From assembly GCA_016211165.1 (NCBI GenBank), contig JACQSU010000086.1:1-35587 (forward strand): a stretch of DNA of 35,587 bases, written 5' to 3'. The notes beneath the pieces were generated by a model. It ran no database searches. It worked only from the letters and a program-made list of their open reading frames with translations, and was not told the DNA's origin. The stretch is from Candidatus Woesearchaeota archaeon. GTDB taxonomy: Archaea > Nanobdellota > Nanobdellia > Woesearchaeales > JAGWAF01. The position numbers and the translations under genes are program-made. This document shows, in pieces, positions 2,472 to 22,352 of the stretch. Every line of letters starts with the position of its first letter. Position 1 is the stretch's first letter.

Positions 2472-2492
2472 TTTGAAGACACTTCCCACTTG

Positions 2493-2813
2493 ATGGAGAT
2501 TGTTACATTTGAAATCGACACGCGGACATACCCACTCTTTATCATACGCGCCGCAGCGTATGCATTTCTTGATCAAACAACAACCATTCTGTCTATTGCA
2601 TCCGAGAACAACATACGATGCCAACTCATCAGAAAAGAGGGCAGGCCCCCTTTTGAACCCCCAAAAGAGGGGGACACCCCATTTTTAAGCCCTGATATAC
2701 TCAAACAGGCATTCATTGATGAACTCACAACGCAGGCCCACTACTTCTCGCAACTTGAACACACCAAGCACATCACCGGCCCGCTCATCTTGGCAGCCTT
2801 GGGAGGACGATAA
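2493..2813 (+). CDS. hxsD: His-Xaa-Ser system protein HxsD-like
   Basis: 'IDTRTYPLFIIRAAAYAFLD...AFIDEL...TKHITGPLILAAL' fits HxsD; upstream of hxsB. ATG 2493 preferred over TTG 2490. Confidence 0.75.
   Translation: MEIVTFEIDTRTYPLFIIRAAAYAFLDQTTTILSIASENNIRCQLIRKEGRPPFEPPKEGDTPFLSPDILKQAFIDELTTQAHYFSQLEHTKHITGPLILAALGGR
2633..2686. repeat. Two tandem family-2-like palindromes inside hxsD
   Basis: AAAAGAGGGCAGGCCCCCTTTT and AAAAGAGGGGGACACCCCATTTTT, read as 'KEGRPPFEPPKEGDTPF'. Confidence 0.55.
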
Positions 2814-3004
2814 TGCTCCAAACAGATCCTCTGCGGCTCGAACTGGATCATCGCATCTATCCACAACACAAGATCGCTCCTGTGCTCAATGACCTTGGCC
2901 TGCGACCAACAGAACAAACAGACACAGCAACAGTCATCGAATCAGACATCTCCAAACTCCTCCATATCGTCGACCATCTCACTATCCAAAACCGCTCACC
3001 ATGA
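2813..3004 (+). CDS. Small HxsD-like accessory protein (63 aa)
   Basis: Coupled on both sides (TAATG at 2811-2815, ATGA at 3001-3004). 'LELDHRIYP' echoes 'FEIDTRTYP' of the preceding gene. Confidence 0.55.
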   Translation: MLQTDPLRLELDHRIYPQHKIAPVLNDLGLRPTEQTDTATVIESDISKLLHIVDHLTIQNRSP

Positions 3005-4443
3005 TCCTCCCATACCAGACCCGAACCATCACAGGAAAAAACCTTGTGACAACACGACTTGGAACATGGATCATCCTCACAAACGAAGAACTTTCTCAAC
3101 TGTGCACAAATACCTTAGAAGACCCTCTCCGAGAACGCCTCACATTAACCGACATCATCATCACGGAAGAGAACCGAGATCGCGTCCTATCCAATTTCCG
3201 CAGACTCAATGCAAATCTTGGAGCAGCACCAAGCCTGCACATCATCTGCGTCACAGACCGTTGCAACCACAACTGCACCTACTGTCACGCATCAAGCCCA
3301 GAAGCAACAGGAGTTGATATGAGTATTGCGACAGCGAACAAAGTTCTTGATGTGATATTCTCCAGCCCTGCCAAGCACTTGACTATCGAATTCCAAGGAG
3401 GCGAGACGATGATCAATTGGATGGTTGTAACCCACATCGTCACTCAAGCAAGACGCAGGGAAGCAACAAGCGGCAAACACATCAGTCTTGTCATCGTAAG
3501 CAATCTCTCACTCATCGACAACGCCAAACTCGAATTCTTATCAATACATCAAGTGGCAATCACGACAAGCCTTGATGGCCCTGCATCTGTGCACGATGCC
3601 AACAGACCATTCCTTGGCGGTGGCCGCAGCACGCACAAGAGTGTCATGCGCGGGATTGAACTTATACAAAACCACTATAAGAAGCAAGGAAAACCAGCAC
3701 CTCTTAGCGCATTGTGCACAACGACCCGGGCGTCACTCGCGCACGGCCCTGCGATTGTCGATGAGTATGCACGCTTAGGGTTTGAGATCATCCACCTACG
3801 CCCTGTCAATCCAGTTGGCATCGCCAAAAAACGATGGGATCTTGTAGGCTACACTGCCGATGAGTTTATTGCGTTTTGGAAGACTGCGATGGACCACATC
3901 CTTAAGCTGAATCGATCCGGCATACGCATCATCGAGCGGCAGGCCTTTATGATGCTGCAAAAAATACTTGCATTCCGCGATCCGATGTACCTAGGCCTGA
4001 TGAACCCCAGCGGAGCAGGACGCTGTGTTCTCACGTATAACTATGATGGCAAGGTCTACGCAAGCGATGAGGCGCGGATGATTGGAGAAGACATCTTCTG
4101 CCTTGGCAGTGTCGATCTCGGATACGAGAAACTTGCGCGCGATCCGATCGTGGCTGGGCTTGTGCAGGCGTCCATCTTGGACAATACCTGTGGCTCGTGT
4201 CCATATATTCCCTGGTGCGGCATTGACCCTGTGCTCACCTATGCCGCATACGGCAGCATCATCCCACAGATCCCCCTGCATCGGATGCACCAGATCCACC
4301 AGGCGCAGTTTGACTATCTTATTGAGCAGATACTTACACACCCGGACCCATTTTCGGCATTCTATTTGTGGCTGCCAAACTTGGACATGACCCTCACAAG
4401 GGCCCGACTCGGAGATCGCATCCTTGCGCTGGATATGCGGTAA
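3001..4443 (+). CDS. hxsB: His-Xaa-Ser system radical SAM/SPASM maturase HxsB
   Basis: 'SLHIICVTDRCNHNCTYCHAS' (CxxxCxxC), 'IEFQGGE', 'TSLDGP..VHDANR', 'YNYDGKVYASDEARM', 'CGSCPYIPWCGIDPV'. Confidence 0.9.
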   Translation: MILPYQTRTITGKNLVTTRLGTWIILTNEELSQLCTNTLEDPLRERLTLTDIIITEENRDRVLSNFRRLNANLGAAPSLHIICVTDRCNHNCTYCHASSPEATGVDMSIATANKVLDVIFSSPAKHLTIEFQGGETMINWMVVTHIVTQARRREATSGKHISLVIVSNLSLIDNAKLEFLSIHQVAITTSLDGPASVHDANRPFLGGGRSTHKSVMRGIELIQNHYKKQGKPAPLSALCTTTRASLAHGPAIVDEYARLGFEIIHLRPVNPVGIAKKRWDLVGYTADEFIAFWKTAMDHILKLNRSGIRIIERQAFMMLQKILAFRDPMYLGLMNPSGAGRCVLTYNYDGKVYASDEARMIGEDIFCLGSVDLGYEKLARDPIVAGLVQASILDNTCGSCPYIPWCGIDPVLTYAAYGSIIPQIPLHRMHQIHQAQFDYLIEQILTHPDPFSAFYLWLPNLDMTLTRARLGDRILALDMR

Positions 4444-4487
4444 ACCCCACCGCTACCCAGATATAGACGCGTACGATCCCAGTGTCC

Positions 4488-5423
4488 ATGGAACTAGCAT
4501 GGATCATGAGTGTCATCGCATGGGTCACCATCGCGACGCTTGCCGCATACAAGGACCATCGAACATCTCGAATTCCCAATACTCTTAACGCAACAGCCTT
4601 GGCAGTCAGTCTGATGATTCTTGCCGTGATCAAGTCATCGACGCAAACCATCCTTATCAACACAACAGCAACGATAGGCGCCTCACTTGTGCTGTGGAAC
4701 CAGGGATGGTGGCGCGGGGGAGACGCCAAACTCTTCATCGCACTGGGCATCGCCACACCCGCACTCATCACGCACGCAATCTACCCAACTTATCCATCCT
4801 TGAATCTCCTTGCACCAACCCTCATCCTTCCTGCTATCTTGATGAGCATCAACGCCGTGCGCAAAAGCACATGGGCACACCACACAAGCAGCCTTCATGG
4901 CACTATTATGAAGCTCCCACGCTACATCCCCACCCTATTTAGTGCAAGTTGGCTCCTTAGCATCGGCTCGGAACTGATTGGCATCCCTCTCACCTCGCTT
5001 GCAACAATCACTATCACATTCGCCGCACTCGAACTCACACTGCCTAACATACCCTGGCCAATTATCCTCTCGCTTTCCTTGCTAAGACTTCTTATTGACT
5101 CCGCATACCAAAGCACCTCGTTCTTTCTTGCATCCATGCTCATTGTTACTATCTATATCACCGCCACATACCTTGGATTACTTGCCGCTGACTTGCATAG
5201 CAGACATATTCTCGCAGTACGCCTACAACCTGGCATGCGCATCACAGCAGCAACTCTTCCCTCTCACCTGCGTCAGTATAGCGATACTGTCGACATCACA
5301 TCCGATAACATCGGCAGCATTCAATCACATGTGAAAGACCTTCGTATCCTAGACCAATTCACCCTTGGACCATACTTCCTTCTTAGTCAATTTATCATAC
5401 TCATAGCCGAAATAGTTTTATAG
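4488..5423 (+). CDS. A24-family prepilin/preflagellin peptidase (FlaK/PibD-like)
   Basis: Polytopic membrane protein with both catalytic Asp motifs 'AYKDHRTSRIPN' and 'GGDAKL'. Alternative GTG start at 4482. Confidence 0.85.
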   Translation: MELAWIMSVIAWVTIATLAAYKDHRTSRIPNTLNATALAVSLMILAVIKSSTQTILINTTATIGASLVLWNQGWWRGGDAKLFIALGIATPALITHAIYPTYPSLNLLAPTLILPAILMSINAVRKSTWAHHTSSLHGTIMKLPRYIPTLFSASWLLSIGSELIGIPLTSLATITITFAALELTLPNIPWPIILSLSLLRLLIDSAYQSTSFFLASMLIVTIYITATYLGLLAADLHSRHILAVRLQPGMRITAATLPSHLRQYSDTVDITSDNIGSIQSHVKDLRILDQFTLGPYFLLSQFIILIAEIVL

Positions 5424-5444
5424 ACAGACCAAGAGCAAATCTTT

Positions 5445-5825
5445 ATGATTGGAACGCATCACCTGCTTGACCTGTACAGCGTTGATTCCCACAGCCTTAC
5501 GGATCTTGAGCTCATACGCGATGCCTTGCGTGGAGCCTGTGCCGCAGGTCACTTCACAACGCTTTCCGAACACATTCACACATTCCCAGAGGGGGGAATA
5601 ACAGCCATCCTCTTGCTTGCGGAATCCCACATCAGCATCCACACGTACCCAGAACACCGATATGCAGCAATCGACTTGTTTAGCTGCGGAGCACAGGCGC
5701 GCCCAGAAGCTGCCATCCAACACCTCATCACCGCCCTTGCACCAGCGCATCATACTCGCAGTGTGAGCACGCGAGGAGAAGGGATCTGCGCGCGGCCGTT
5801 GCCGGCTCATATCTACAACTCTTGA
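5445..5825 (+). CDS. speD: S-adenosylmethionine decarboxylase proenzyme (short pyruvoyl type)
   Basis: 'GTHHLLDLY', 'GITAILLLAESHISIHTYPE', 'IDLFSCG'; intact E|SH autocleavage site. An arginine-decarboxylase paralog cannot be excluded from sequence alone. Confidence 0.88.
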   Translation: MIGTHHLLDLYSVDSHSLTDLELIRDALRGACAAGHFTTLSEHIHTFPEGGITAILLLAESHISIHTYPEHRYAAIDLFSCGAQARPEAAIQHLITALAPAHHTRSVSTRGEGICARPLPAHIYNS

Positions 5826-5827
5826 TA

Positions 5828-6121
5828 TCACTTACCAGCAACAGGAGGGGGCGGGCACGGACCGCCCTGAATAATTTGGTGGCAATGAATCCCACAATGG
5901 TTACCGTCACCTGTCTCAATACTCAAACTATTCGCGTGGCACGCAGAATTACACGCAGGTGAGCACGAACACTGTGCTAATGTGGGAATCGCTGATGAGG
6001 CAAGACCAAGCGCAATCAGCGCACCAGCCTTCACAACATCGGCCTTGGTCATCCGCCCATTTTCATCTTCAATAAAGAGCGAGACCTTGCGAGCAACTTT
6101 TGGCAAAAGTTTCTCATTCAT
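5828..6121 (-). CDS. Putative precursor peptide of the Hxs-type cluster (97 aa, Cys/His-rich core)
   Basis: GAGGAGG RBS before ATG 6121. Leader 'SLFIEDENGRMTKADVVKAG', hydrophobic 'ALIALGLASSAIPTLA', core with 7 Cys and 4 His. Lies within a peptide-maturase cluster. Confidence 0.7.
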   Translation of the reverse strand: MNEKLLPKVARKVSLFIEDENGRMTKADVVKAGALIALGLASSAIPTLAQCSCSPACNSACHANSLSIETGDGNHCGIHCHQIIQGGPCPPPPVAGK

Positions 6122-6794
6122 ACACACGCGCCTCCTCGGCAATCGAACGGCATATGGCACTCTTGATCAGAGGGCACGCTTGCGGATTCTTGGTCACTGT
6201 CACTGTACAGGCCATCATATCAGTCACATCTGAGATATAAGCACACAAGGATTCCTCATTAGCACGCAGAGCTTGCACCCAGTGCACGTGACCCTTGCAA
6301 ACCTCTTGATCAGAAAGTTGTGGGTAGCGGCTGCACAGGGACGAATCATCCATGATGATGGCTTGACATTCAATAGCCTCCTCACCATAAGGACACAATG
6401 ATGTTTGATTCCGCTCTACAGCGTTGCATACGGCAGCGTATTCTGGATCAATGATATCCTCACAAGAACCAGTCCCATCGATCATTCGAACCATAACAGA
6501 GAGTGCCTTGCAATCTTCCGCAGACGGATGCGCATCACACGCAGAAGAATTCGCGCTAGCCAAGGCTACACACAATGCATCAAGATTGCTCTTCTCCACG
6601 CACTGAGCAGTTCGTTGTTCTATCACCTCGGTTACCGGAACCTTAGAAGACCATACTGAAATGCCGACGACAATAACAAATCCAACGACGATGAACACCC
6701 AGTGTCTCATAGGCCAAAATCCGCAGACGCGGACACCTCGGATTTCTTTCTTGTTTTTGTCACGCCGCCCGCTCTCGTGAACGGTTCTTGACAT
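6114..6794 (-). CDS. Membrane-anchored protein with short Cys-pair repeats
   Basis: GGAGG RBS before ATG 6794; one TM helix 'WVFIVVGFVIVVGISVW'; repeats such as 'CEDIIDPEYAAVC' and 'CAYISDVTDMMAC'. Alternative start at 6710. Confidence 0.7.
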   Translation of the reverse strand: MSRTVHESGRRDKNKKEIRGVRVCGFWPMRHWVFIVVGFVIVVGISVWSSKVPVTEVIEQRTAQCVEKSNLDALCVALASANSSACDAHPSAEDCKALSVMVRMIDGTGSCEDIIDPEYAAVCNAVERNQTSLCPYGEEAIECQAIIMDDSSLCSRYPQLSDQEVCKGHVHWVQALRANEESLCAYISDVTDMMACTVTVTKNPQACPLIKSAICRSIAEEARVYE

Positions 6795-6807
6795 ATTCCC
6801 TCCTGTC

Positions 6808-7917
6808 TTAGGGTATAAAACCGTTTCGACAATCGACGACGTGCACAATCTTGCCAGATGTCGTGCGATGAACCAGTCCACCCATAACAATGCTCACATC
6901 AACACCATGCACTGTCGCGATCCTTTCTCGCAACTGCGCAACCTGCGCAGGCGTGGCATGCGCAACGCACACCACAACCTCATCGTGCACACCATCGGCT
7001 GCATGTCTTAACTCCAAGGAGAATTCAGGATGACCTATCGCGCTCTCGACTAGCGCCGCAAGCGAATCCTTGGAGCAGACATCTCCCCAAATCTTGATCT
7101 GATCATCTGAACGTCCCAGTATCTTGATCAACCGCACAGAACCCTCTGATCGCAACTCGACCCGATCACCAATCAAATACCTCACTATGGGCATCGACTC
7201 ATTCATCAGATCCGTGATGAGCAGGTCCCCCACACCCTCTTTGCTAATCCTGCCGTTGTCATCCCTCACTTCAAGGACGAGGGAACCTCCAAGGACATGA
7301 AACCACCCGTCATCAGCCTGCGATGCGACGATGCCGACCTCGGTCGCAGCATAAAACATCCGAACCCTGGCCGTCGGCACCTTGGAAGAAAAGAACTGCA
7401 TACATTCCCTTGTCACTTTTCCGCCTGTGAGCATAATGAGACGCAATGAGGGCAGGGCATCCACATGCTTAAGAATCTCAAACACGTGCGAGACAAATCC
7501 CACAAGCACTGACACGCCAGCAGACTCAAGCTTAAAACACAGCAGATCCATATTATGCTCTGTAAGCACACCGCAATGAATGATCATCGCAGGAAGCAAA
7601 CGATCAAAACCCACATCAAGAATCACGTTATCCAGAAGACTCCCCACAACATCATCTGCCTTGATTTCCTCCAAGAAGAGTCTGGATCCCTGCGCAATCT
7701 GACTCTCCACAGCTTTGCTTGATAGAAAAATCAACTTATGAGCCCCCTCTGATCCCGACGTGTTGAGCACATAACGCGGACGGACAGGACAGTCAGTAAT
7801 TGACCACGATGCGAGGTGCTCCCTTGTCACAATAGGTATGTCCCCGGATCCATGCCAGGATCTATACTTCGGATGCGCACGCCATTTGCAGGAGATATCC
7901 ACAACATCGGCCATCAT
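6808..7917 (-). CDS. Phenylacetate-CoA ligase (PaaK/CapK)-like adenylate-forming enzyme
   Basis: ANL-superfamily motifs 'TSGSEG..K', 'YAATEVG', 'RYLIGD', 'GRSDDQIKIWG', 'RTTSGK'. Confidence 0.82.
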   Translation of the reverse strand: MMADVVDISCKWRAHPKYRSWHGSGDIPIVTREHLASWSITDCPVRPRYVLNTSGSEGAHKLIFLSSKAVESQIAQGSRLFLEEIKADDVVGSLLDNVILDVGFDRLLPAMIIHCGVLTEHNMDLLCFKLESAGVSVLVGFVSHVFEILKHVDALPSLRLIMLTGGKVTRECMQFFSSKVPTARVRMFYAATEVGIVASQADDGWFHVLGGSLVLEVRDDNGRISKEGVGDLLITDLMNESMPIVRYLIGDRVELRSEGSVRLIKILGRSDDQIKIWGDVCSKDSLAALVESAIGHPEFSLELRHAADGVHDEVVVCVAHATPAQVAQLRERIATVHGVDVSIVMGGLVHRTTSGKIVHVVDCRNGFIP

Positions 7918-9641
7918 AGACCACCCAAGCGCCTCCTTCGCACATATCTTATCTCGCGAATGAAATCGCGATCCGCCGTGAACCGTAGCGGCTCATCAGC
8001 ATTGTAGATAGCGTCCTCAACCTTCCCTGTTACAAGAGGATGCGCGAACTCCGTCGACAAGAGATGCAAGACCAACTCCTTACGACCAAGCGCTGCCAAA
8101 AGCCATTGATCATTCTGACCGACCGTTATATAGTCCTTGGCAGCAGCTTCTAACGAAGACAAGTCTGGATACTTCTCACGCAAAGCCTTTGGCACATCAT
8201 TCCGACTCGTAACACCCTTTTCCTTGAGCACAAGCCCCATTGCAAATGCCGATTCAATCGCCTCCCCTTCTATTATCCAGGCAGGGTTGCGCGGGGTAAA
8301 CGCGCAAAACACGTGCTTGCCAGGACGTTGACCAATCGCTTCTACAGAACGTGAGAGAAAGAGACGGAATCCTGCACCGGTATAGGGAGGATCAAAACAG
8401 CACACATCCACCATACCTATAAGATCCTGCGGCAAGGGATCGCGCAAGTCATGCACACGCGCACGCACGGGGAGACGATGTGTCGCTGCGACTTCATTGA
8501 TACGAGACACCACACGTGGATCAATATCAAGCACGACAATGTCATCAAACACTCCCTGCGCCGCGAGCAGCAGCGAGAGAAAATCATCATCACCAAGAAC
8601 CAACACCTTTCGCTGCCCCCGAGCGGCCTTTGCAATGTACGCGGCCCTTACCTTTAGATCCTCTTCACACACCCGAAGCTGCGCAAAAGAGCGATCCTCA
8701 ACACAACGCATGTCTGACACATCGATACGCACGGCCTGCGGAGTCCAGTGATGCATGGCATAGAACCTGCCTGCGTCCTCATGGACTATACGATGTTCCA
8801 TAAACATCCGCAACACCCGCGCGACAAGTAAAATTGCCATACCAACATCCTGCGCAATAGACCACACATCCTTGCCATCACAACAATCAAAAATATCAAG
8901 CACATCCTCTGCGCACAATTCCACGGCGCAATGATTCGTCAATTGTCCGGCAACATGCTCGGCTACATCCTTAAGCAGATTCACTGGCCGAAGCTCTTCA
9001 TCACGGATTGAAGCAATTGCTCCCTTGCACACATCCTTCTTTGCGCAGACATGGCATCGGGGCCGTTGTGACCGAGCCTGTGCAACAAGCAATCCAGCAT
9101 CGTGCTGCTCAAGATCCCCGAGCAGACATAACGGAATATTATCTGCAAGAATAACACCTGGAAACAGCGCCATCACAAGCCGCGTCTGCGCAGCAGCAGC
9201 ATCCACAGGAATATACTCATGTTCTGCTACCGGGACCACCTGTGACTGCGCACCTGGATAGAACAAGATGATCCTCTCAATCCCCTGGTTCCTTGCCTTG
9301 CGAACCATCGAATTGAGACGATACACACTTGATGCTACCAAGGGAATGATCAGCACATCAGCAGGGGATATATGCGCCGCTTCCTCTGTTAGCACAGTAT
9401 CAACTAAGACACCCACTGTCACATTCGTTGAGCGCGACACCTTTGAAGGATGCGATGTAATCACGAACGTCTTCTTATCCCTGCTGCAGATAAGCTCCTG
9501 GATGGTATCCCATTGCGGATGATCTGTTGGCTCGGCACCAGCGATGAGCACCAAACCTTGCATACCGGAGATCCCATCCCTAATCTGATCAAGCCCCACA
9601 AACACATCACCATCACGCAACCTACAGAACACAGCCTCCAT
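7914..9641 (-). CDS. Fusion of a degenerate HxsC-like radical SAM domain and a BpsA-like (branched-chain polyamine synthase) aminopropyltransferase
   Basis: N-half: 'GAEPTDHP', 'NIPLCLL', 'CHVCAKKDVCKG...EELRPV', no CxxxCxxC. C-half: 'VLVLGDDDFLSL', 'VVLDIDPR', 'HDLRDPLP', 'DPPYT.AGFRLFLSR'. Confidence 0.8.
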   Translation of the reverse strand: MEAVFCRLRDGDVFVGLDQIRDGISGMQGLVLIAGAEPTDHPQWDTIQELICSRDKKTFVITSHPSKVSRSTNVTVGVLVDTVLTEEAAHISPADVLIIPLVASSVYRLNSMVRKARNQGIERIILFYPGAQSQVVPVAEHEYIPVDAAAAQTRLVMALFPGVILADNIPLCLLGDLEQHDAGLLVAQARSQRPRCHVCAKKDVCKGAIASIRDEELRPVNLLKDVAEHVAGQLTNHCAVELCAEDVLDIFDCCDGKDVWSIAQDVGMAILLVARVLRMFMEHRIVHEDAGRFYAMHHWTPQAVRIDVSDMRCVEDRSFAQLRVCEEDLKVRAAYIAKAARGQRKVLVLGDDDFLSLLLAAQGVFDDIVVLDIDPRVVSRINEVAATHRLPVRARVHDLRDPLPQDLIGMVDVCCFDPPYTGAGFRLFLSRSVEAIGQRPGKHVFCAFTPRNPAWIIEGEAIESAFAMGLVLKEKGVTSRNDVPKALREKYPDLSSLEAAAKDYITVGQNDQWLLAALGRKELVLHLLSTEFAHPLVTGKVEDAIYNADEPLRFTADRDFIREIRYVRRRRLGGL

Positions 9642-9790: not shown

Positions 9791-12760
9791 ATGCAACAAT
9801 CCATTGCTGTGATCACAATTATCCTGGTGCTCATCCTTGTTGCGTCCCCAACATTTGCACAAAGCGGCGTTCTCAAACTCCTCTTTCCTGACCAAACCAC
9901 GGAAGCCATCGTCACAGACGAATGCGCAGGCACAGGCAAATGCTGCATCCCCACAGCCATCGCAGACAAGGTCTGCACAAGCGAAGGCACGTACATCCTC
10001 AACTTCAAATACACAGGAGACGTACAGAGCGCAGGCGAAGTCCTCAAAAACGCCCACGCCGTCAACTGGGATACGGAGCAATACTGCAAAGGCACGGAGA
10101 GCACGGATGTGCTATGCTTCCAAAACAAAAGCGTAAACTTCTCATCTGTATCAGGGAAGTGCTGCGGAGCACGCCCCAGCAGGGACTGCGGACTGCGCAG
10201 CGGCACAGAAGTCTGCGTCAACCCCACCAAAGAACCAGAACACTGGGAACTCATGCACCTTGCAGAAAACCACGGAGATATCATCGATGTCGACTGCGCG
10301 CAAACACAACTCGTAAGCGATGGAACTGAATTCTACGGATGTGGACTCTACCAAGGCATCGCGACACAGCATCCCACGTTCGATCTTTTGGAAGTCACCA
10401 GAAGTGGCGTTGACCAATACCAAAAGCACGGCTACCTGTGCGCAGAACCAGACCCTGGAAACAACAACACCCACCCGGAAATCATCGAATGCCTCGGCGA
10501 CGGACGATCATACAACCAAAAACAAGGAAACATCGGACAGATCGGAGAAGCACACCAACGCGGCGAACTCTTCTTTGCCCAACTTGGCCGCGACGATGTC
10601 ATCCAAACCGGAGCCCTTGGCAACTTTAATGGCGCAAGCGGCAAACTCATTGTTAAACTCAACAACACCTGGGCAGGGTCAGAAGACCTTACCAGAGTCA
10701 TCTTCTTTGCAGAAGCGGACCTTGACACATACATCTCCATAGAAAAAAGCAAGAACAAACTCACCTGCAATGCAGTCAATGGGGGAAGCAGTATCAAAAC
10801 AACATTTGACATTAGCAGTCTTACACCATCACCGCAAAGCGGCATTATCCACACGATTATCCTCACGTGGAACACCAATGGCCAATTCATCTGCTCCTTT
10901 GATGGAGTATCACAAACCAAAACAGGATACAACGCCATCAATGTCAGAGAACTCTTTGTCAACACAGGACCCCGAGGAGCCCAAGGATCGCAATCACCCA
11001 TGCGCGCGCGCATCTCAAAAGACGCGAATGCGCCCATACTCTACTGCACCAAGGATGCCCAATGGGTCAAGGACCTTGACACAAAGGACTCGATTACGTG
11101 CCGCGCTGCAGGCCTTCGCTGGACAGGAAGCAAGTGCTGCTCTGAAGACGAAGACCTGCCAGGCGAATCCTACAATGACAAAGACCCCCCAAACTACAAT
11201 GACCAAGAAAGCGGCGCCTGCTTTAAATCCGCGCATGTCGCCAATGGATTCCTCGTCCCACAAACCAATGACACGGTCCTTGCGATCCTCGGAGAATTCT
11301 ACGGATGTCAACTCAACGAGACCGCACCACACTTTCTTGCACTCACTGACACCCACACAGGAAAACCCCTTATCAATACCACCAATAGGTGCACACTCGC
11401 CTATAATGCAACACGAAATGTCAACGTGAACTACTACTGCTCATTCCGCAACAACTGGACACGCACGCTTAAACAGGATCAGTTGTTCCCACGAAGCGTC
11501 GCACCTGAAGTTCGCTCCGTCCTGAATCCCGCACAAAACCGCAGCGCCATCGACACAGAATGCTGCCCACAACAACAATGCTGGAGCGGCATTGCCTGCG
11601 TGAACGACCAACGAAACGACCCAAATCCTCGAAACACCATCAAAGGATTCCGCTGCATCGGAGGCAACTGGACCACGATGACACCAAAACACACCTTTGA
11701 TGACCGTGTCTTCGGATTCTGCCCACGCAACGAACAATGCCTTGTCAACCCAAGCGCAAACGCATCTGCAAACGACCTACCACACGCCATTAGCTTTGCA
11801 CATCCGGAACGAGGACCCATCTGCATCACTAATGGGCAATACATCCTTCAATCAATCACTCGTGGCGATGCCACGCAGAGCACATCAACATACTGCAACA
11901 ATGGGTCATGGACCAGCAGAACCAATATCCTCGCATCATACCTTGCAAGCATCGGAGAAACCCAAGCACCCAACAACTACGCACTCTTCTGCGACCGATT
12001 CCGCAACACACTCAATTTCTTTGAATACCGAGCACTCCCGGACGCCAACTTTGTGTCGCACTACATGGACGCAACATGCACAGGGCCTGACAAAACACCA
12101 ACCCCCTGCGTCAACGAATTCTGCGTCCTCAAATACGGAGACAAGGTCGCCTGGGGAACCACACTTAACAAACCCATCAACGACTCAAGAGAGGGATTTC
12201 TTAATGCCGTTGGAAAACCAGTCACGCACTGTGACAACGCACTGCAAGACGACGCACAATTCCACGCCTGCGGCGCAAACATGTGGCACAACAATGCCCT
12301 GGGAGCCATCATCCACCTTCCCACAGGAGCAGTGCCAGGCATCACAACTACCGAAGCCCTAACCGCCGGCGCAGCATACATCGAGGCGCGCATGCAAGCC
12401 ATTGACACATTCATGGAATCCGCAACACTTGCAGACTTTCGAACCTTCATCCTAAGCACCCACATGTTCGAAAACCTCTATATCAACCGCGCAGGCCAAA
12501 AAGACCTTTTTGCGTTTTTGCAAACAAACAGAGTCAATGGCACACCCATCGACTACCTTGCCGCACGCTACATGGGAATCAATATCACCGACCCACGCGG
12601 CGTGTCGGGCTGCGACCTTATCAGAAACCGCATCACCGTCGATTTAGCCAAAGACTGCAAAACTGTGGGCACAACAAACACCTTTGTCGGCGTACAAACA
12701 CCAGGAGAAGGAAACCTAAGAATTATATGGCAGGACTTCACAGCAAAACTACGCAAATAA
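9791..12760 (+). CDS. Large secreted Cys-rich protein (989 aa), probable LamG/ConA-like domain; paralog of 17989-20949
   Basis: Signal peptide ending 'SPTFA|Q'; many Cys; 'HTIILTWNTNGQFICSFDG'. Shares 'WTGSKCCSE.EDLP.ESYND.DP' and 'TPCVNEFCVLKY' with the paralog. Confidence 0.8.
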   Translation: MQQSIAVITIILVLILVASPTFAQSGVLKLLFPDQTTEAIVTDECAGTGKCCIPTAIADKVCTSEGTYILNFKYTGDVQSAGEVLKNAHAVNWDTEQYCKGTESTDVLCFQNKSVNFSSVSGKCCGARPSRDCGLRSGTEVCVNPTKEPEHWELMHLAENHGDIIDVDCAQTQLVSDGTEFYGCGLYQGIATQHPTFDLLEVTRSGVDQYQKHGYLCAEPDPGNNNTHPEIIECLGDGRSYNQKQGNIGQIGEAHQRGELFFAQLGRDDVIQTGALGNFNGASGKLIVKLNNTWAGSEDLTRVIFFAEADLDTYISIEKSKNKLTCNAVNGGSSIKTTFDISSLTPSPQSGIIHTIILTWNTNGQFICSFDGVSQTKTGYNAINVRELFVNTGPRGAQGSQSPMRARISKDANAPILYCTKDAQWVKDLDTKDSITCRAAGLRWTGSKCCSEDEDLPGESYNDKDPPNYNDQESGACFKSAHVANGFLVPQTNDTVLAILGEFYGCQLNETAPHFLALTDTHTGKPLINTTNRCTLAYNATRNVNVNYYCSFRNNWTRTLKQDQLFPRSVAPEVRSVLNPAQNRSAIDTECCPQQQCWSGIACVNDQRNDPNPRNTIKGFRCIGGNWTTMTPKHTFDDRVFGFCPRNEQCLVNPSANASANDLPHAISFAHPERGPICITNGQYILQSITRGDATQSTSTYCNNGSWTSRTNILASYLASIGETQAPNNYALFCDRFRNTLNFFEYRALPDANFVSHYMDATCTGPDKTPTPCVNEFCVLKYGDKVAWGTTLNKPINDSREGFLNAVGKPVTHCDNALQDDAQFHACGANMWHNNALGAIIHLPTGAVPGITTTEALTAGAAYIEARMQAIDTFMESATLADFRTFILSTHMFENLYINRAGQKDLFAFLQTNRVNGTPIDYLAARYMGINITDPRGVSGCDLIRNRITVDLAKDCKTVGTTNTFVGVQTPGEGNLRIIWQDFTAKLRK

Positions 12761-13625: not shown

Positions 13626-15806
13626 ATGAAGACACCCCTGCTTTTCCGAATTCTGGTCGTCTTGTGCTTTCTTGCAGCCGTCTTCAACTCCCCTGGTTCT
13701 GCTACACCCAGCTCCGGATGCCAAATCCTTCATCGCAACCTCATACTCACCCACAACCTCACATCCAATGGCACCTGTTTTACCATCGGAGCAAACGGAG
13801 TGACGCTTGATTGCGCAGGGTTTACGATTCGCGGCAATGCAAGTGATGTGCTCATTAATATCTCGCGCAAACATGGTGTTATCGTCAAGAATTGCCGCTT
13901 TGCTAATGCGAGCATCAGTGTTCTTATGGAGGATGTGAATAACAGCCTTATCAATAACGTGACTCATGACACCATCCGATATCTTGGAACCATCACCCCG
14001 GACTGGAATAGAATCTCACGCAACACCACTATCGCCAACAGTGATAACTTCATCCTCTACAAACCGAACAATGGCGATGCCAGCAGTCTTGTCCTTGAGA
14101 ACAACACCAATATGGGATTCCAACGGGCGACGTTTAGCTCTTTTAATAACAACACGATCATTAGAGCGGAGTCCCTACACGGAAACCTCGGAACCTCATC
14201 TCGTTTTACCAACAACCACATCAGCGGAATCCACACCACGTTTAGCAACTCCATGACATTTATCAACAACACCTTCACCAACACATCCTTGACAGGCATT
14301 GGACTCACTGGAGCGAGCGCAGACATCATTTTCATCAACAATGACGTACGAAATGTTCCCCGATTCTGGCACATCGGCGGGGGCGGATTCGCAGCCAATC
14401 ATCGCATTATTGGCAACACATTCTATAATATCAGTCTTGCATTAGCCTACCCTGGCTACGGACCTGCGACAAACACCATCATCGTCAATAACAAATTCCT
14501 TAGCATCGGCACCGCCATCATCCTCAACAATGCCAGGCACAATGTCCACCTCCTCAATAATACCTTCAACGCCACCTACAGTGCGATTAACCTTGGCACC
14601 ACTGCCCCTAATCACAACGCAGTCATTGCGAATAACACATTCAATACAACAGAATATGGAATACAATTCTTTGGTACGAGCAATAATACCCACATCCTGG
14701 GAAATACATGGCTTGCAGGAAGCACCGGCATTCTTTTGAGCAGCACAACACAAGGAGCAAGCGCCAACAACACCCTTATCAGAGGAAATACGTTTAGGAC
14801 AACCACTACCCCTATTAGCCTCACCACGCTTGGAGCCAGCGGACAAAGCGCAGCAGTCCTTCGCATCATCGACACTCTGATGCTAAGCACGGGAAGCGGC
14901 ATATCACTCACTGGAGCAGAAAGCCCTTACATCAACAACAATACAGCGAACGCAACAACTTCAACCACACCGACCATTGCGCTCTTCAACGCGACACAAG
15001 GCATAGTCTCCAATAACACCATTAACAACGCGAGGCATAGCGTCAGGCTCATCACTTCGCGGGCGACCCTCCAAGACAACCTACTGGTGGACACACCCCT
15101 TGGAGTTGTTATTAACGACACCGGCTGGCCAGCAGGAGAATACACCATTGACAACACCACATTCCTCACACCCCCACGAGAATCCATCCACATCAGCGAC
15201 ACACTCAATGTCACCATCACCGGCCCCCTGCCTGCAAATATCACCATCCAAAACAGCACCACAACACGCATCACCTTAACCAGCCCCCTCCACGCGCACA
15301 CACGCCACCTCTCTGATATTATCAGCCTCACCAACAATCTCGCGTATCTAAACAGCACACTTGCACCTGAATGGAACACCAGCGCACGCATCTCCCTGCA
15401 CAACCTTAACTTCCTTGACCCACAACCCTACATACGCTTCCTTGACTATGGATCATTCCACAACTGCCCCCCAATGATATGCACCACACTCACGCGGGAC
15501 CCTCTCACAAATACATACCACCTTGACGTCAACCACTTTACCACCTACACCATAGGCGAAGGACAACTCCCCCAACCCATCCCTGCATCGGCACTTCCCG
15601 CGCCATCAGAAAACATCTGTTGCTGCAATTCCCAAGGACTCGCACAGAAGCCAAGCGTACTCTTCTCCGGAGCAGCATTTCCACTTGGATGTGACACTGC
15701 AGCGGAATTTGTAGAACATCCCCCACCAATCGCTAGCCTTGATATCGATTTCTCCACTGCATGCACCACCGTATGCATGGAAGACGCAATCCAACAATAC
15801 ATATAA
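13626..15806 (+). CDS. Secreted right-handed parallel beta-helix (NosD/pectin-lyase-like) protein with C-terminal six-Cys module
   Basis: Signal peptide; 'CFTIGANGVTLDCAGFTI'; many 'I.NNTF' repeats; Pro linker then 'NICCCN...CTTVC'. Confidence 0.82.
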   Translation: MKTPLLFRILVVLCFLAAVFNSPGSATPSSGCQILHRNLILTHNLTSNGTCFTIGANGVTLDCAGFTIRGNASDVLINISRKHGVIVKNCRFANASISVLMEDVNNSLINNVTHDTIRYLGTITPDWNRISRNTTIANSDNFILYKPNNGDASSLVLENNTNMGFQRATFSSFNNNTIIRAESLHGNLGTSSRFTNNHISGIHTTFSNSMTFINNTFTNTSLTGIGLTGASADIIFINNDVRNVPRFWHIGGGGFAANHRIIGNTFYNISLALAYPGYGPATNTIIVNNKFLSIGTAIILNNARHNVHLLNNTFNATYSAINLGTTAPNHNAVIANNTFNTTEYGIQFFGTSNNTHILGNTWLAGSTGILLSSTTQGASANNTLIRGNTFRTTTTPISLTTLGASGQSAAVLRIIDTLMLSTGSGISLTGAESPYINNNTANATTSTTPTIALFNATQGIVSNNTINNARHSVRLITSRATLQDNLLVDTPLGVVINDTGWPAGEYTIDNTTFLTPPRESIHISDTLNVTITGPLPANITIQNSTTTRITLTSPLHAHTRHLSDIISLTNNLAYLNSTLAPEWNTSARISLHNLNFLDPQPYIRFLDYGSFHNCPPMICTTLTRDPLTNTYHLDVNHFTTYTIGEGQLPQPIPASALPAPSENICCCNSQGLAQKPSVLFSGAAFPLGCDTAAEFVEHPPPIASLDIDFSTACTTVCMEDAIQQYI

Positions 15807-15807
15807 A
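15801..15807 (+). promoter_or_regulatory. TATA box for the gene at 15833
   Basis: ATATAAA ~26 nt before the ATG. Confidence 0.5.
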
Positions 15808-15832
15808 CCCGAATCTAGCAGTTCACACCCCA

Positions 15833-17188
15833 ATGAGCACCAGTAACCTTGTTCGCCGAAGCCAAATCAGCTGGGCGATCATCCTCACCATCTTTTTTCT
15901 TATCCTCTTTGCGATGCTTCTCTACCTCTTGTCATCCTACATGCAAGCCGGAGCAGACCTAAGCCTTATCCGAGGACAACTTAGCGAGACAGAACTCGTC
16001 CCACTCAAAGAGCATATCCAAGACTGTCTGGACCTTGCCAGTCGCAAAGGCCTTATTCTCGCAGGCAAACACGGAGGCGTCATCTACACAAGCCAAGGAG
16101 GACCCACACCGGACCCTCCTCCTACGTCCCTTGGAGAGGACTATCTGCTCTATGAAGGTGACATCATCCCCTATGCAGTCGTACCTTTCAGAGGCACTTT
16201 AGGCGGAGGATCATTTCGATACGCTGCAGAACCACCAGAATATCCCTGGGACGGATTCCCAGAATATCAACCACCCTGCGACACCACCTGTCCACCGCCC
16301 ACTACCAGCACCAAAGGCCTAAGCGGATACAACCTCCTTACCAGCCTGCCAAAACTCTTCACTGTCTCCATGCAAGACCAACTGGAACGCTACATCCATA
16401 ACACCACCCTCACATGCATCGACTGGAACCAATTCACCACTCTTGCAACATCCGCAGGCAACTCAAGCCTTCATGTCATCATCACCCACGCAAGCACGAT
16501 CATATCCTTCGAATACCCCCTCGTGATCACCAATACCATAACCGGCGCACAGGGCCGTATCCGCGATTTTCTCATCGAGTATCCTGTGCGCCTTGGACAG
16601 ATGATCAACTTCACAAGCGACACACTCGATGATGAAGTCTCCACACTCGAATTCAACCTTAACGCAAGCACTGTAGAAACCCTCACGTTTGAACGACGCG
16701 ACCACATCCACAATCTTGACTACATTATCATTACATCTGATCCTCAAAGCACCATACTTGAAACTCCGTATGAGCTGCGCTTTGCCATACGCAACCGCCG
16801 CCCCGCCCTCTTCTTACTCAATGACTCGCGTCACAGAACCCTCAACACATTTGTGATCTGTGGCGGCAAAGACTCCAATCAAAACTATGACCCACCCATC
16901 ATTTTTCTAACCCAGAACCAAGCACAATTGTGCATTCAAAACGGCAATGGATGCAACCCATCGTCCACCTGCGCAATACTTAACGCCATCGACCCGGACG
17001 ACAACCCTCTTACATATACATACCAACTTGACACGCCAGAACCCACAAACGCCACAACAATAGTGAGCGAAGCAACACTGATTCTTTTGCAAGCCACCAA
17101 TCAACGATTAGGAATCATGGTGAATGTCACCGACGGACAACATGCAGATAGCCAAACGCTCCGCTTCCGCACCACACGCATCCCCTAA
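15833..17188 (+). CDS. Large pilin-like protein with class III signal peptide; paralog of 20949-22352
   Basis: 'RRS|QISWAIILTIFFLILF'; shares 'HIQDCLDLASR', 'PPEYPWDGFPEYQ', 'STILETPYELRFAIRNRRPAL' with the paralog. ATG 15833 lies ~26 nt after a TATA box. Confidence 0.78.
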   Translation: MSTSNLVRRSQISWAIILTIFFLILFAMLLYLLSSYMQAGADLSLIRGQLSETELVPLKEHIQDCLDLASRKGLILAGKHGGVIYTSQGGPTPDPPPTSLGEDYLLYEGDIIPYAVVPFRGTLGGGSFRYAAEPPEYPWDGFPEYQPPCDTTCPPPTTSTKGLSGYNLLTSLPKLFTVSMQDQLERYIHNTTLTCIDWNQFTTLATSAGNSSLHVIITHASTIISFEYPLVITNTITGAQGRIRDFLIEYPVRLGQMINFTSDTLDDEVSTLEFNLNASTVETLTFERRDHIHNLDYIIITSDPQSTILETPYELRFAIRNRRPALFLLNDSRHRTLNTFVICGGKDSNQNYDPPIIFLTQNQAQLCIQNGNGCNPSSTCAILNAIDPDDNPLTYTYQLDTPEPTNATTIVSEATLILLQATNQRLGIMVNVTDGQHADSQTLRFRTTRIP

Positions 17189-20949: not shown

Positions 20950-22352
20950 TGATCATGAAAAACTCTGAAAAACTCGGCTCCGCCTCATTTTTTCAGAGTT
21001 TTCTATCCTCACGCGCACAAGTGAGCGGCATGCTCATCCTTGCAACCCTCCTTGTCTTCTTCTTTGCCGCACTCTACTATATCACCACGACATACATCCG
21101 ATCGACTGGCGAAGCGACAATATCCAGGCAACAACTTAGCGAAACCGAACTTGTCCCCCTGCGCACGCATATTCAAGACTGCCTTGATCTTGCCAGCAGA
21201 AACGGGCTTGCACTCGCCGGATTCCAAGGCGGACTCATCTACCGCAGCCAACAAGGACCGCATCCAGACCCGAATCAAGCCGACCTAGGATACACATACC
21301 TCACCTACGACGGAAAAAACCTTCCCTACGCCATTATCCCACCCCAAGAAACCCTTGGACCATACCAAAGCGACCCACCGGAATACCCGTGGGACGGATT
21401 CCCGGAATACCAAGCGCCCTGCACCGAGACCTGTCCTGGACGAATCAACCTAACCAAAGCATTCGCAGGATACAATCTCCTCACCAAACTCGGAAAGAAC
21501 TTCAGCATCTCAATGCAGGACCAACTCGAAGACTACATCCTCACCAAAACCACCACCTGCATCGACTGGCAACAATTCACAAACAAAAACCTCGAATTCT
21601 CAAAAGGCACACCAATGCTCAACGTAAGCATTGCGCAGGCAAGCACCATCATCACGCTCGACTACCCCATCGAGGCAACAAACACCATCACAGGAGCACA
21701 CGCAACACTTCGCGCATTTGCCATCGAATACACTGTACGCCTTGGACAAATGATCAGTTTTACCAGCGACATCATCGACGCAGACATATCCGACCTTGCA
21801 TTTAATCTTAGCGCAAGCGCGGCCGAGAGCCTCACCTTTGAACGCAAGAACCGCATCAGAGGACTCGACTATGTCATCATCACCACAGACCCACACAGCA
21901 CCATCCTCGAAACACCCTACGAACTCCGATTCGCCATCCGCAACCGAAGACCAGCACTCTACTTACTTAATGACTCCACACACCCTGAAATCAACACGTT
22001 CATCATCTGCGGGAGCAAGGACGCGGATGGCAACTACGACCCGCCCAAACTCTCCATCAGAGAATCACCCACCCAATTCTGCATTATCAATGGCGCAGGA
22101 TGCGACCCCACAGGCATATGCGCGCCCCTCAATGCCCTGGACCCTGACGATAATCCCCCCCTATACACTTATAAACTCGACAATCCCGAGAGCACGGCAC
22201 CAACCAGCGGCCAAACCACAGTGAGCGAAGGCACACTTGCATTTTTGCAACTCAACAATGAACGTCTCGAACTGACTGTGAACGTCACAGACGGAGAACA
22301 CGCGGACAGCCAAACACTCCGCTTCCCAGCAACACTCATCGCACGCACATGA
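20949..22352 (+). CDS. Large pilin-like protein with class III signal peptide; paralog of 15833-17188
   Basis: 'SRA|QVSGMLILATLLVFFF'; translationally coupled on both sides; collinear with the paralog. Confidence 0.8.
   Translation: MIMKNSEKLGSASFFQSFLSSRAQVSGMLILATLLVFFFAALYYITTTYIRSTGEATISRQQLSETELVPLRTHIQDCLDLASRNGLALAGFQGGLIYRSQQGPHPDPNQADLGYTYLTYDGKNLPYAIIPPQETLGPYQSDPPEYPWDGFPEYQAPCTETCPGRINLTKAFAGYNLLTKLGKNFSISMQDQLEDYILTKTTTCIDWQQFTNKNLEFSKGTPMLNVSIAQASTIITLDYPIEATNTITGAHATLRAFAIEYTVRLGQMISFTSDIIDADISDLAFNLSASAAESLTFERKNRIRGLDYVIITTDPHSTILETPYELRFAIRNRRPALYLLNDSTHPEINTFIICGSKDADGNYDPPKLSIRESPTQFCIINGAGCDPTGICAPLNALDPDDNPPLYTYKLDNPESTAPTSGQTTVSEGTLAFLQLNNERLELTVNVTDGEHADSQTLRFPATLIART
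20959..21002. repeat. Palindromic element, family 1 (inside gene 5' end)
   Basis: Perfect 14-bp stem AAAACTCTGAAAAA / TTTTTCAGAGTTTT around CTCGGCTCCGCCTCAT. Confidence 0.8.

Follow-up and report, generated by a model that had tools for sequence, protein, structure and literature searches.

The closest known system to the locus treated here is the bacterial HXS defence system, an antiphage system comprising HxsA, HxsB, HxsC and HxsD that blocks phage DNA entry and of which 99.7% of the instances lie in Pseudomonadota (Nat Commun 2026, PMC13128918). The present locus is situated in a stretch of 35,587 nucleotides from a Candidatus Woesearchaeota archaeon (contig JACQSU010000086.1, the whole stretch hereafter called the window), and the gene in question, at 5828..6121 on the minus strand, was identified from its translation, its HxsA3 match and its homologues as a divergent precursor gene of the HxsA3/HxsA4 type in a DPANN (Woesearchaeales-type) archaeon. 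The best explanation of the data, and one we regard as probable, is that this is a real, divergent precursor which would be modified by the radical S-adenosylmethionine (SAM) maturase HxsB, exported, and cut behind its leader by a prepilin-type peptidase of family A24 encoded in the same cassette. When compared with HXS, the locus is alike in having an HxsB above the curated cut-off, a small HxsD-like protein and a small exported His-rich substrate, which in HXS is N-terminally processed beyond plain removal of a signal peptide (PMC13128918) and for which the same is predicted here. Unlike in the bacterial system, no HxsC was found in the source genome and an A24 peptidase is present in the cassette instead, the substrate lacks a peptidoglycan-binding domain and, in the window, also the His-Xaa-Ser (HxS) repeats, and the host is an archaeon.

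Other systems that come close are those of prepilin processing. The archaeal class III signal peptide consists of a short basic leader with Lys/Arg at -2 and Gly/Ala at -1 and a hydrophobic stretch straight after the cut, and Flp/Fap prepilins have Gly at -1 and Glu at +5 within the hydrophobic N-terminus. With the Flp/Tad prepilins (TadV/CpaA) and the class III peptides (PibD, FlaK, EppA) the precursor family shares a basic leader (Gly at -1, Glu at -3) and a hydrophobic helix behind it, and, as in those systems, a GxGD aspartyl peptidase without a methyltransferase domain is encoded nearby. It differs from both in that ten charged or amphipathic residues separate the Gly from the hydrophobic stretch, in an acidic -2 position, in the lack of a general Glu at +5 and of a Pfam Flp match, and in a cassette without pilus ATPase or platform gene, in which the C-terminal part of the peptide would be the substrate of a radical-SAM enzyme. 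Precursors of the SCIFF/ranthipeptide type likewise have a small Cys-rich core beside a SPASM radical-SAM enzyme, but are without a membrane-spanning segment and without an A24 peptidase. A literature search, with supplements and subscription journals outside its scope, gave no paper in which a prepilin peptidase is connected with a radical-SAM precursor, and none of the papers found on ribosomally synthesised and post-translationally modified peptides (RiPPs) of the radical-SAM type in DPANN dealt, judged by title and abstract, with a cassette of A24, HxsD, HxsB and peptide.

Precursor gene and family

The open frame extends over 5828-6160 on the minus strand, and direct translation from the likely start, an ATG at 6121, gives 97 amino acids (aa) and a stop codon (MNEKLLPKVARKVSLFIEDENGRMTKADVVKAGALIALGLASSAIPTLAQCSCSPACNSACHANSLSIETGDGNHCGIHCHQIIQGGPCPPPPVAGK). 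A peptide quoted in a preliminary description of this DNA, given there without a strand, is exactly reproduced by this minus-strand translation. The start agrees with the family alignment, which opens a few residues ahead of a conserved Pro; 9 nt 5' of the ATG a Shine-Dalgarno sequence can be read (GAGGAGG, 6131..6137, minus strand), and the start is overlapped by the stop codon of the upstream open reading frame (ORF) (ATGAATGA).

A search with NCBIfam revealed a match of residues 6-38 of the precursor to positions 2-34 of the HxsA3 profile (NF038309; E 8.1e-4, 19.2 bits), the whole precursor not reaching the curated cut-off of 65 bits. The peptide family is already curated in NCBIfam as HxsA3 and HxsA4 (NF038313); among 61 aligned full-length members 60 match HxsA3 and 24 match HxsA4 (E<=0.01), and judged by these comparisons the precursor is a divergent member, one without the name-giving HxS repeats. 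A homologue with 42% identity (E 2.4e-17) was found in a genome of the same genus (G001), and of 301 genomes belonging to the order 76 give matches with the leader profile. When run against a 1.84-billion-protein library of representatives, the profile matches 1039 clusters at E<=1e-3, of which 264 reach E<=1e-10, always N-terminally. Because of the G001 homologue and the matches across the order and the library, the ORF is, on this comparative evidence, a real gene and more than a chance open frame.

Six-frame searches of 60 related genomes revealed small ORFs with the same N-terminus, mostly directly downstream of hxsB, and many of them finish in textbook HxS repeats. The family match and these hxsB-adjacent homologues bear out the suggestion in the preliminary description that the ORF is an Hxs-system precursor. 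The named records in which the peptide family occurs are those of Woesearchaeota or Nanoarchaeota and, as single records, of Aenigmatarchaeota and Micrarchaeota, and the same cassette is also present in named records of the latter two. The world-wide list of loci was obtained with a 10-row leader alignment, the single pattern of which, EEGKISK[QE], biases the list to consensus-like members, and a word-index homologue search with the 97-aa protein found only the protein itself, the index being too coarse for the HxsA3/HxsA4 family. As in RiPP precursors, a conserved leader is joined to a variable core beside a maturase, the core varying across the family from 0 to 44 HxS triplets and from 0 to 101 Cys.

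Giant relatives carrying the same leader were observed in four loci (L110:10176-11651 and L108:9082-10166 on the minus strand, L115:9650-10633 and L103:9861-12791 on the plus strand), among them tandem pairs of His-x-Ser/Thr repeat proteins with up to 144 His and no cassette nearby, and an open frame of ~977 aa with 101 Cys, 128 His and a repeating H-D-N-C...H-S-N-C unit. In other members the leader leads into a short His or Cys core, behind which lies a Hint/intein-like domain (L025:9361-10161 and L024:14260-15492, both minus strand, and representatives P0059 and P0072); the Pfam Hint match (5.7e-8) and an intein C-terminal motif suggest self-cleavage or transfer of the peptide C-terminus.

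Leader, core and cassette peptidase

The basic N-terminal leader (residues 1-22, 6056..6121, minus strand), defined from the family register, alignments and an AlphaFold2 (AF2) model, ends with F16-I-E-D-E20-N-G22, and from the sequence comparisons we propose a putative A24 cleavage site after G22. When numbered from this Gly (-1), the precursor is in register with 103 unique leaders at P-16, K-15, the basic residues -12/-11, F-7, E-3, G-1, K+4 and G+11, the consensus being P-K-x-K-K-K...F-L-x-x-E-x-G/K-I-S-K...G (the slash marks the putative cut here and below) followed by the hydrophobic stretch. Ahead of the site the 103 sequences have P at -16 (86/102), K at -13 (80) and -12 (86), F at -7 (82, and Y in 16), L at -6 (72), E at -3 in all, a count partly forced by the anchoring pattern used for counting, E or D at -2 (79; E 52, D 27) and G at -1 (96; A 4, S 3), and after it K at +1 (70), I at +2 (88) and S at +3 (80). 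In MAFFT alignments of 16, 52 and 61 rows E20 is invariant and G22 near-invariant.

The leader is followed by a charged/amphipathic segment (residues 23-33, RMTKADVVKAG, 6023..6055, minus strand; consensus K-I-S-K-x-S-L-L-x-x-G) with K+4 in 94 and G+11 in 92 of the 103 sequences, and then, by hydropathy, by a hydrophobic stretch (residues 29-49, 5975..6037, minus strand) that ends T-L-A with a possible signal-peptidase I site, TLA/Q50. Across the family ~15 Ala/Gly/Ser/Leu/Ile residues come after +11, and small residues are favoured at +28 (A 32, S 15, V 11) and +30 (A 42, G 13; n=103). The preliminary description had made its reading depend on conservation of the leader motif and the hydrophobic stretch in the neighbours of hxsB; when the small ORFs beside hxsB were compared, both F-x-x-[DE]-E-x-G and the hydrophobic stretch proved to be conserved.

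The core (residues 50-97, 5831..5974, minus strand, from the translation) ends in PCPPPPVAGK and contains C51, C53, C57, C61, C76, C80 and C89, H62, H75, H79 and H81, and as its only Lys the last residue, K97; the counts given earlier for the part after TLA (7 Cys, 4 His, no H-x-S, a single C-terminal Lys) are all correct. No H-x-S triplet is found anywhere in the 97 residues, against up to 44 in relatives. The pattern C-x-x-C...C-H-[AS]-N...G-x-H-x-H-x-I...C-P-P-P is common to the window and the same-genus genomes G001 and G002, and H62 and H79 are near-invariant, being kept in at least 90% of the 61 family members in the full-length alignment. The AF2 model made from the 61-row alignment predicts a helix at 7-18, a loop at 19-25 that includes E-N-G/R, a helix at 26-41 and strands at 60-71 and 74-85, the latter forming a beta-hairpin (residues 60-85, 5867..5944, minus strand) with H62-A-N-S-L and H79-C-H81; the predicted local distance difference test score (pLDDT) is ~90 for the hairpin and 77.6 on average, with a predicted template modelling score (pTM) of 0.37. 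By alignment and model, the window core keeps the family core domain (the H-x-N-x-L ... H-x-H hairpin) and is without only the HxS tail. The earlier notion of a Cys/His core in place of HxS repeats is thus right as to the missing H-x-S but not as to a replacement, the hairpin core being retained and the tail alone missing. Cores free of HxS recur regularly as a minority: among the 150 top representatives there are 37, some of them truncated, and 16 of these have at least 4 Cys; the formation of thioethers in the core is a guess. In the orthologous precursor of G002 (L015:9684-10904, plus strand) ~80 residues are inserted between an A-H-A/Q site and the Cys/His core, and its frame continues ~200 residues beyond C-P-P-P, by fusion, a lost stop or an assembly error.

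The cassette consists, besides the peptide, of three genes which in the window all lie on the plus strand. HxsB (3001..4443), a radical SAM/SPASM maturase, scores 403.1 bits with TIGR03978 against a cut-off of 370, its next-best NCBIfam matches being PapB, the SCIFF maturase, QhpD and CcpM. The 107-aa protein (2490..2813) is a divergent HxsD-like small protein with a weak match of its own to TIGR03976 (E 0.022; 15.1 bits, the cut-off being 50); the profile is matched by 40 of 41 aligned homologues (E<=0.01, best 2.2e-17), and by these matches the family is HxsD. HxsC (TIGR03977) was not found in the source genome, which is 88% complete, the best score being 28.3 bits against a cut-off of 267.9. 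The third gene (4482..5423) codes for the GxGD aspartyl, prepilin-type A24 peptidase (PF01478, 34.8 bits against a cut-off of 26.5) and belongs to a cassette-specific group.

A survey of ~20 kb round 73 leader loci, which with the window make 74 loci from 71 genomes (the leader-positive genomes G003, G171, G176, G216, G219, G225 and G297 falling outside it), was scored by profiles built from the window proteins, counting HxsB as adjacent at >400 bits within 5 kb of the leader peptide and A24 and the HxsD-like protein at >50 and >45 bits, respectively, within 6 kb. HxsB, A24 and the HxsD-like protein are found together in 40 of the 74 loci, HxsB in 52 and A24 in 49. The peptidase is present at 42 of the 52 HxsB loci, and among the 10 without it within 6 kb, 4 are cut by contig ends and 2 have an A24 7-8 kb off. 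The strict one-strand order A24/HxsD-like/HxsB/peptide is kept in 26/74 loci, and A24 abuts the HxsD-like gene in 33 of the 49 loci holding both. In a tree of 67 A24 sequences, 55 of the cassette type are separated from 12 shorter rows encoded elsewhere with a Shimodaira-Hasegawa-like approximate likelihood ratio test (SH-aLRT) value of 98; the source genome has one of each, the window copy being on the cassette side. Its second A24 (G000:C79:5754-6071, locus L027), a 300-aa frame of the short group, is likely a general prepilin peptidase.

Among the 301 genomes 81 have a cassette-type A24 and 76 the leader, with both in 71, A24 only in 10, the leader only in 5 and neither in 215 (70, 10, 5 and 209 of 294 without seven genomes flagged unpublished). 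In at least two of the five leader-only exceptions (G001 and G022) the cassette is adjoined by an A24 that is divergent or truncated by the contig, and in one A24-only genome (G032) HxsB adjoins the A24. Six loci hold A24, the HxsD-like gene and the leader but no HxsB, and in G025 (98% complete), which has a locus of this type, no HxsB match was found anywhere in the genome; since the three persist in this way, the leader is not merely a tag for HxsB. In four proteins (L019:9743-10381, L024:5605-6237, L024:14260-15492 and L102:9764-10351, all minus strand) an HxsD-like domain of ~100 residues is fused ahead of the leader, followed by the hydrophobic stretch and a Cys/Gly/acid-rich core; each has a cassette-type A24 close by, whereas its locus is without HxsB. 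The fusion makes the motif internal, which suits a cut at the cytoplasmic face.

The window A24 keeps both catalytic aspartates, D25, which is invariant, and the D81 of G-G-D81-A-K, conserved in at least 90% of 42 rows. Its model (pLDDT 88.3, pTM 0.81) resembles FlaK (3s0x_B; Z 11.9, root mean square deviation 4.5, 163 aligned), the next chain having Z 5.2; Foldseek gave FlaK at E 0.35 (prob 0.95), and phmmer against PDB sequences gave nothing at E<=1. NCBIfam has no model specific to the cassette A24s, which by their matches (2 of 42 to the EppA model, 1.1e-14, and 4 to FlaK) lean towards EppA and FlaK. The Tad system is held to go back to an archaeal pilus that depended on EppA (PMC6668835), and with such an origin the presence of a Flp-like motif in archaea would be unsurprising.

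Modelling of the A24 together with leader residues 1-52 gave a score of 0.63 (runs 0.63, 0.61 and 0.68; best control 0.02), a mark attained by 58 out of 80 solved complexes and by 2 out of 110 mismatched pairs, counts that apply here only approximately, as alignments of our own were supplied. At least 90% of contacts are common to the runs, with a partner pLDDT of 67-70, and the modelled interface comprises on the side of the peptidase D25, 29-33 and 75-83 and on that of the peptide residues 19-40, which supports binding of the leader at the catalytic aspartates. To our knowledge there is no solved complex of a prepilin peptidase with a substrate. The idea that the cluster's own A24 is the leader peptidase holds up comparatively, through a dedicated paralogue linked to the leader and through this modelled binding.

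Proposed maturation route and rival explanations

The precursor can be divided into four putative parts, the basic leader to G22, the charged segment R23...G33, the moderately hydrophobic Ala/Gly/Ser-rich stretch to A49 and the 48-residue Cys/His core. In the route we propose, the core hairpin would be modified in the cytoplasm by HxsB with the HxsD-like protein, the likely products being cross-links involving Cys or His; the hydrophobic stretch would then insert N-in/C-out and place the core outside the cell, and the cassette A24, acting in the way of prepilin peptidases at the cytoplasmic face of the membrane, would cut behind Gly22 and remove residues 1-22. It is comparative genomics together with the complex model from which we infer this cut. 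A final release by signal peptidase I at TLA/Q50 may follow; that the product is anchored via residues 23-49 or is also released at this site are about even prospects.

Several observations weigh against a cut by the A24. The putative site is atypical for every known class of A24 substrates, and was already called non-canonical in the preliminary description, correctly, on account of charged residues after the Gly and the lack of Glu at +5. Position -2 is acidic or Asn (Asn in the window) instead of Lys/Arg, and +1 to +9 are charged (R, K, D and K in the window) instead of hydrophobic, so that of the class III features the window has the basic leader and Gly-1, its hydrophobic stretch beginning ~7-10 residues after the cut. 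Glu+5 is missing in the window, and E or D is found there in 29 of 103 sequences (Q 39, E 25, K 15). Neither the precursor nor 12 relatives match Pfam Flp_Fap (PF04964) at E<=10, a search in which the HMMER filters may drop weak matches, and nothing else meaningful was found for these 13 peptides; the likeness to Flp, as read from the sequence, is one of a short motif, and homology is not shown. No pilus ATPase or platform gene was found by Pfam among the window ORFs. Four well-flanked HxsB loci (L022, L061, L062 and L092) have no A24 within 6 kb, three of these genomes carrying a cassette-type A24 elsewhere; ~17 genomes, by hand count, have only the cassette-type A24 at E<=1e-5, and where it is the sole A24 detected it may double as general prepilin peptidase. 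The window A24 sits on a long branch (1.98) and its exact place in the tree is unsure, the profile thresholds and the class limit of E<=1e-30 were set by eye from bimodal scores, and, the related genomes not being independent, no p-value is claimed. The end of the hydrophobic stretch, with its small residues at +28 and +30 and TLA/Q, resembles a signal-peptidase I site, and the Sec route alone would account for export; an A-x-A-type site as second cut or as alternative is a live option.

These last points lead to an explanation by the Sec route only, which we hold to be unlikely, in which the precursor has an ordinary Sec signal peptide released at TLA/Q50, the N-terminal 33 residues serve HxsB/HxsD as recognition element, in the manner of a RiPP leader or extended signal-peptide region, and the A24, without any cut at Gly22, clears the remnant signal peptide as signal-peptide peptidases do, or serves pilins. 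The basic stretch, the Ala/Gly/Ser-rich h-region and the small residues at +28/+30 suit such a peptide, as do the ends of the stretches in relatives (AHA/Q, ASA/K, VEA/K and VSA/T); moreover, bacterial HxsA is a periplasmic protein with a signal peptide (PMC13128918), and a single Pfam clan holds both the A24 peptidases and the presenilin-type signal-peptide peptidases (PMC6668835). Behind the ~100-residue HxsD-like domain of the four fusion proteins, however, an N-terminal Sec signal peptide cannot work, and the explanation is further opposed by the near-invariant Gly-1 (96/103, otherwise Ala or Ser) and the invariant Glu-3, which are what a site-specific cut predicts, by an A24 paralogue that tracks the leader even without HxsB, and by the complex model, in which residues 19-40 are placed at D25 and D81. 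That the ORF is instead a chance open frame or a decayed, functionless remnant is very improbable: its HxsA3 score is far under the cut-off (19.2 against 65 bits), the gene is no longer at the usual site after hxsB, and a search for RNA sequencing runs covering 4400-7000 of the window listed none, but the key leader positions and both core His are in the family register, the Cys/His pattern is kept along with the 42% identity to G001, the Shine-Dalgarno sequence is strong, the start overlaps the stop of the upstream gene, and the hairpin is predicted confidently by the model.

The last of the alternatives starts from the genes around the precursor and gives the terminal Lys or the new N-terminus, named as aminopropyl acceptors in the preliminary description, the central role. 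According to it a BpsA-like enzyme, using decarboxylated SAM made by SpeH, would aminopropylate K97 or the new N-terminus, assisted by the AMP-binding and the 258-aa proteins, which we consider improbable. The precursor is indeed the last gene of an operon BpsA_C-like/AMP-binding/unknown/precursor, with its start overlapped and SpeH converging 2 bp away; a second, unrelated family (G245, L090) has SpeH directly after the precursor and BpsA_C and two AMP-binding genes nearby; and K97 is present only in the source genome's peptide among three genus members. The same lack of conservation within the genus speaks against K97 as acceptor. Only 2 of the 74 loci have BpsA and SpeH close to the cassette, neither G001 (100% complete) nor G002, the precursors of which have the same Cys/His core, yielded a BpsA-like gene, and the partners in L090 (CoA-transferase, KAS III, SDR, MaoC and a further radical-SAM protein) look like an acyl/polyamine pathway of their own. 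BpsA is known, moreover, as a polyamine synthase and not as a peptide-modifying enzyme. The acceptor proposal is not supported, and maturation by HxsB and the A24 is the reading we retain.

Neighbouring genes and biological meaning

The source genome is assembled to 976 kb in 92 contigs and contains the RNase P p30 gene, which in the window follows ThiI and a PP-loop ATPase on the plus strand and precedes the 107-aa protein, HxsB, the A24 peptidase and an S-adenosylmethionine decarboxylase of the SpeH type (5445..5825, plus strand; PF02675 112.4 bits, TIGR03330 113.3 bits). The minus-strand operon converges on these genes; the stop codons of SpeH and the precursor are 2 bp apart (5823-5830), so that the two transcripts must either overlap or terminate one within the other, and a 137-aa ORF antisense to SpeH (5418-5831, minus strand) has no family match and is probably spurious. 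The first gene of the operon codes for a protein of 575 aa that contains a domain of the branched-chain polyamine synthase BpsA (BpsA_C; 7914..9641, minus strand; PF01861, 90 bits) and the second for a PaaK-like, AMP-binding adenylate-forming enzyme (6808..7917, minus strand; PF00501, 33.5 bits), homologues of which adjoin the cassette in L021, L090, L107 and L114. Between the latter and the precursor lies the unknown 258-aa protein (6114..6890, minus strand), the stop of which overlaps the precursor start and which probably starts at residue 33 (~6794); it has no Pfam or NCBIfam match, the structure atlas (entry from residue 33) gave scores of at most 0.81 with a template modelling score (TM) <0.5 and nothing usable, and no homologue was found in 5 related genomes, an empty answer that shows little.

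In G245, where a BpsA-like gene was found, a nine-gene operon (L090:456-9678) converges on A24/x/HxsB/precursor/SpeH and codes for BpsA_C, CoA-transferase III, KAS III, SDR, an AMP-binding protein, a second radical-SAM/SPASM protein, another AMP-binding protein, a MaoC dehydratase and an FMN reductase; it is a second, independent link of polyamine/adenylation genes to the cassette. Two proteins without Pfam match adjoin the cassette in the window, of 989 aa (9791-12760, plus strand) and 475 aa (15761-17188, plus strand); both genes are syntenic with it in L014, L015, L020 and L023, the 989-aa protein having 44-48% identity within the genus, and they may be part of the Hxs system or conserved surface proteins. 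Further downstream a 1949-aa protein (22349-28198, plus strand) contains calcium-binding TSP3 repeats of the bacterial type and has a weak Ig-like match; it is probably a large surface protein.

The window peptide is one divergent member of its family, and its relocation to an operon of polyamine/adenylation genes is a curiosity of this locus. For the family at large it is possible, though we stop short of calling it probable, that the four-gene cassette of DPANN archaea makes a prepilin-style matured, radical-SAM-modified His/Cys-rich mini-protein, the EppA/FlaK-related peptidase cutting a Flp-like leader and leaving the hairpin on the surface. If so, this would be the first case of a RiPP leader being removed by a peptidase of the prepilin type and, for prepilin peptidases, a new class of substrate; leader removal is a bottleneck in understanding and engineering radical-SAM peptides, to which a membrane GxGD protease would be a new solution. 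The archaeal variant, with A24 present and HxsC not found in the source genome, also offers a testable comparison to bacterial Hxs. The cassette is common (76 of 301 genomes of one DPANN order, other DPANN phyla and ~1000 metagenome clusters), which makes its predicted secreted product a major unstudied one, and its carriers are organisms living attached to other cells. By analogy with HXS the product, if made as proposed, might guard the envelope of these episymbionts against the entry of viral DNA, or it might bind metals or the host.

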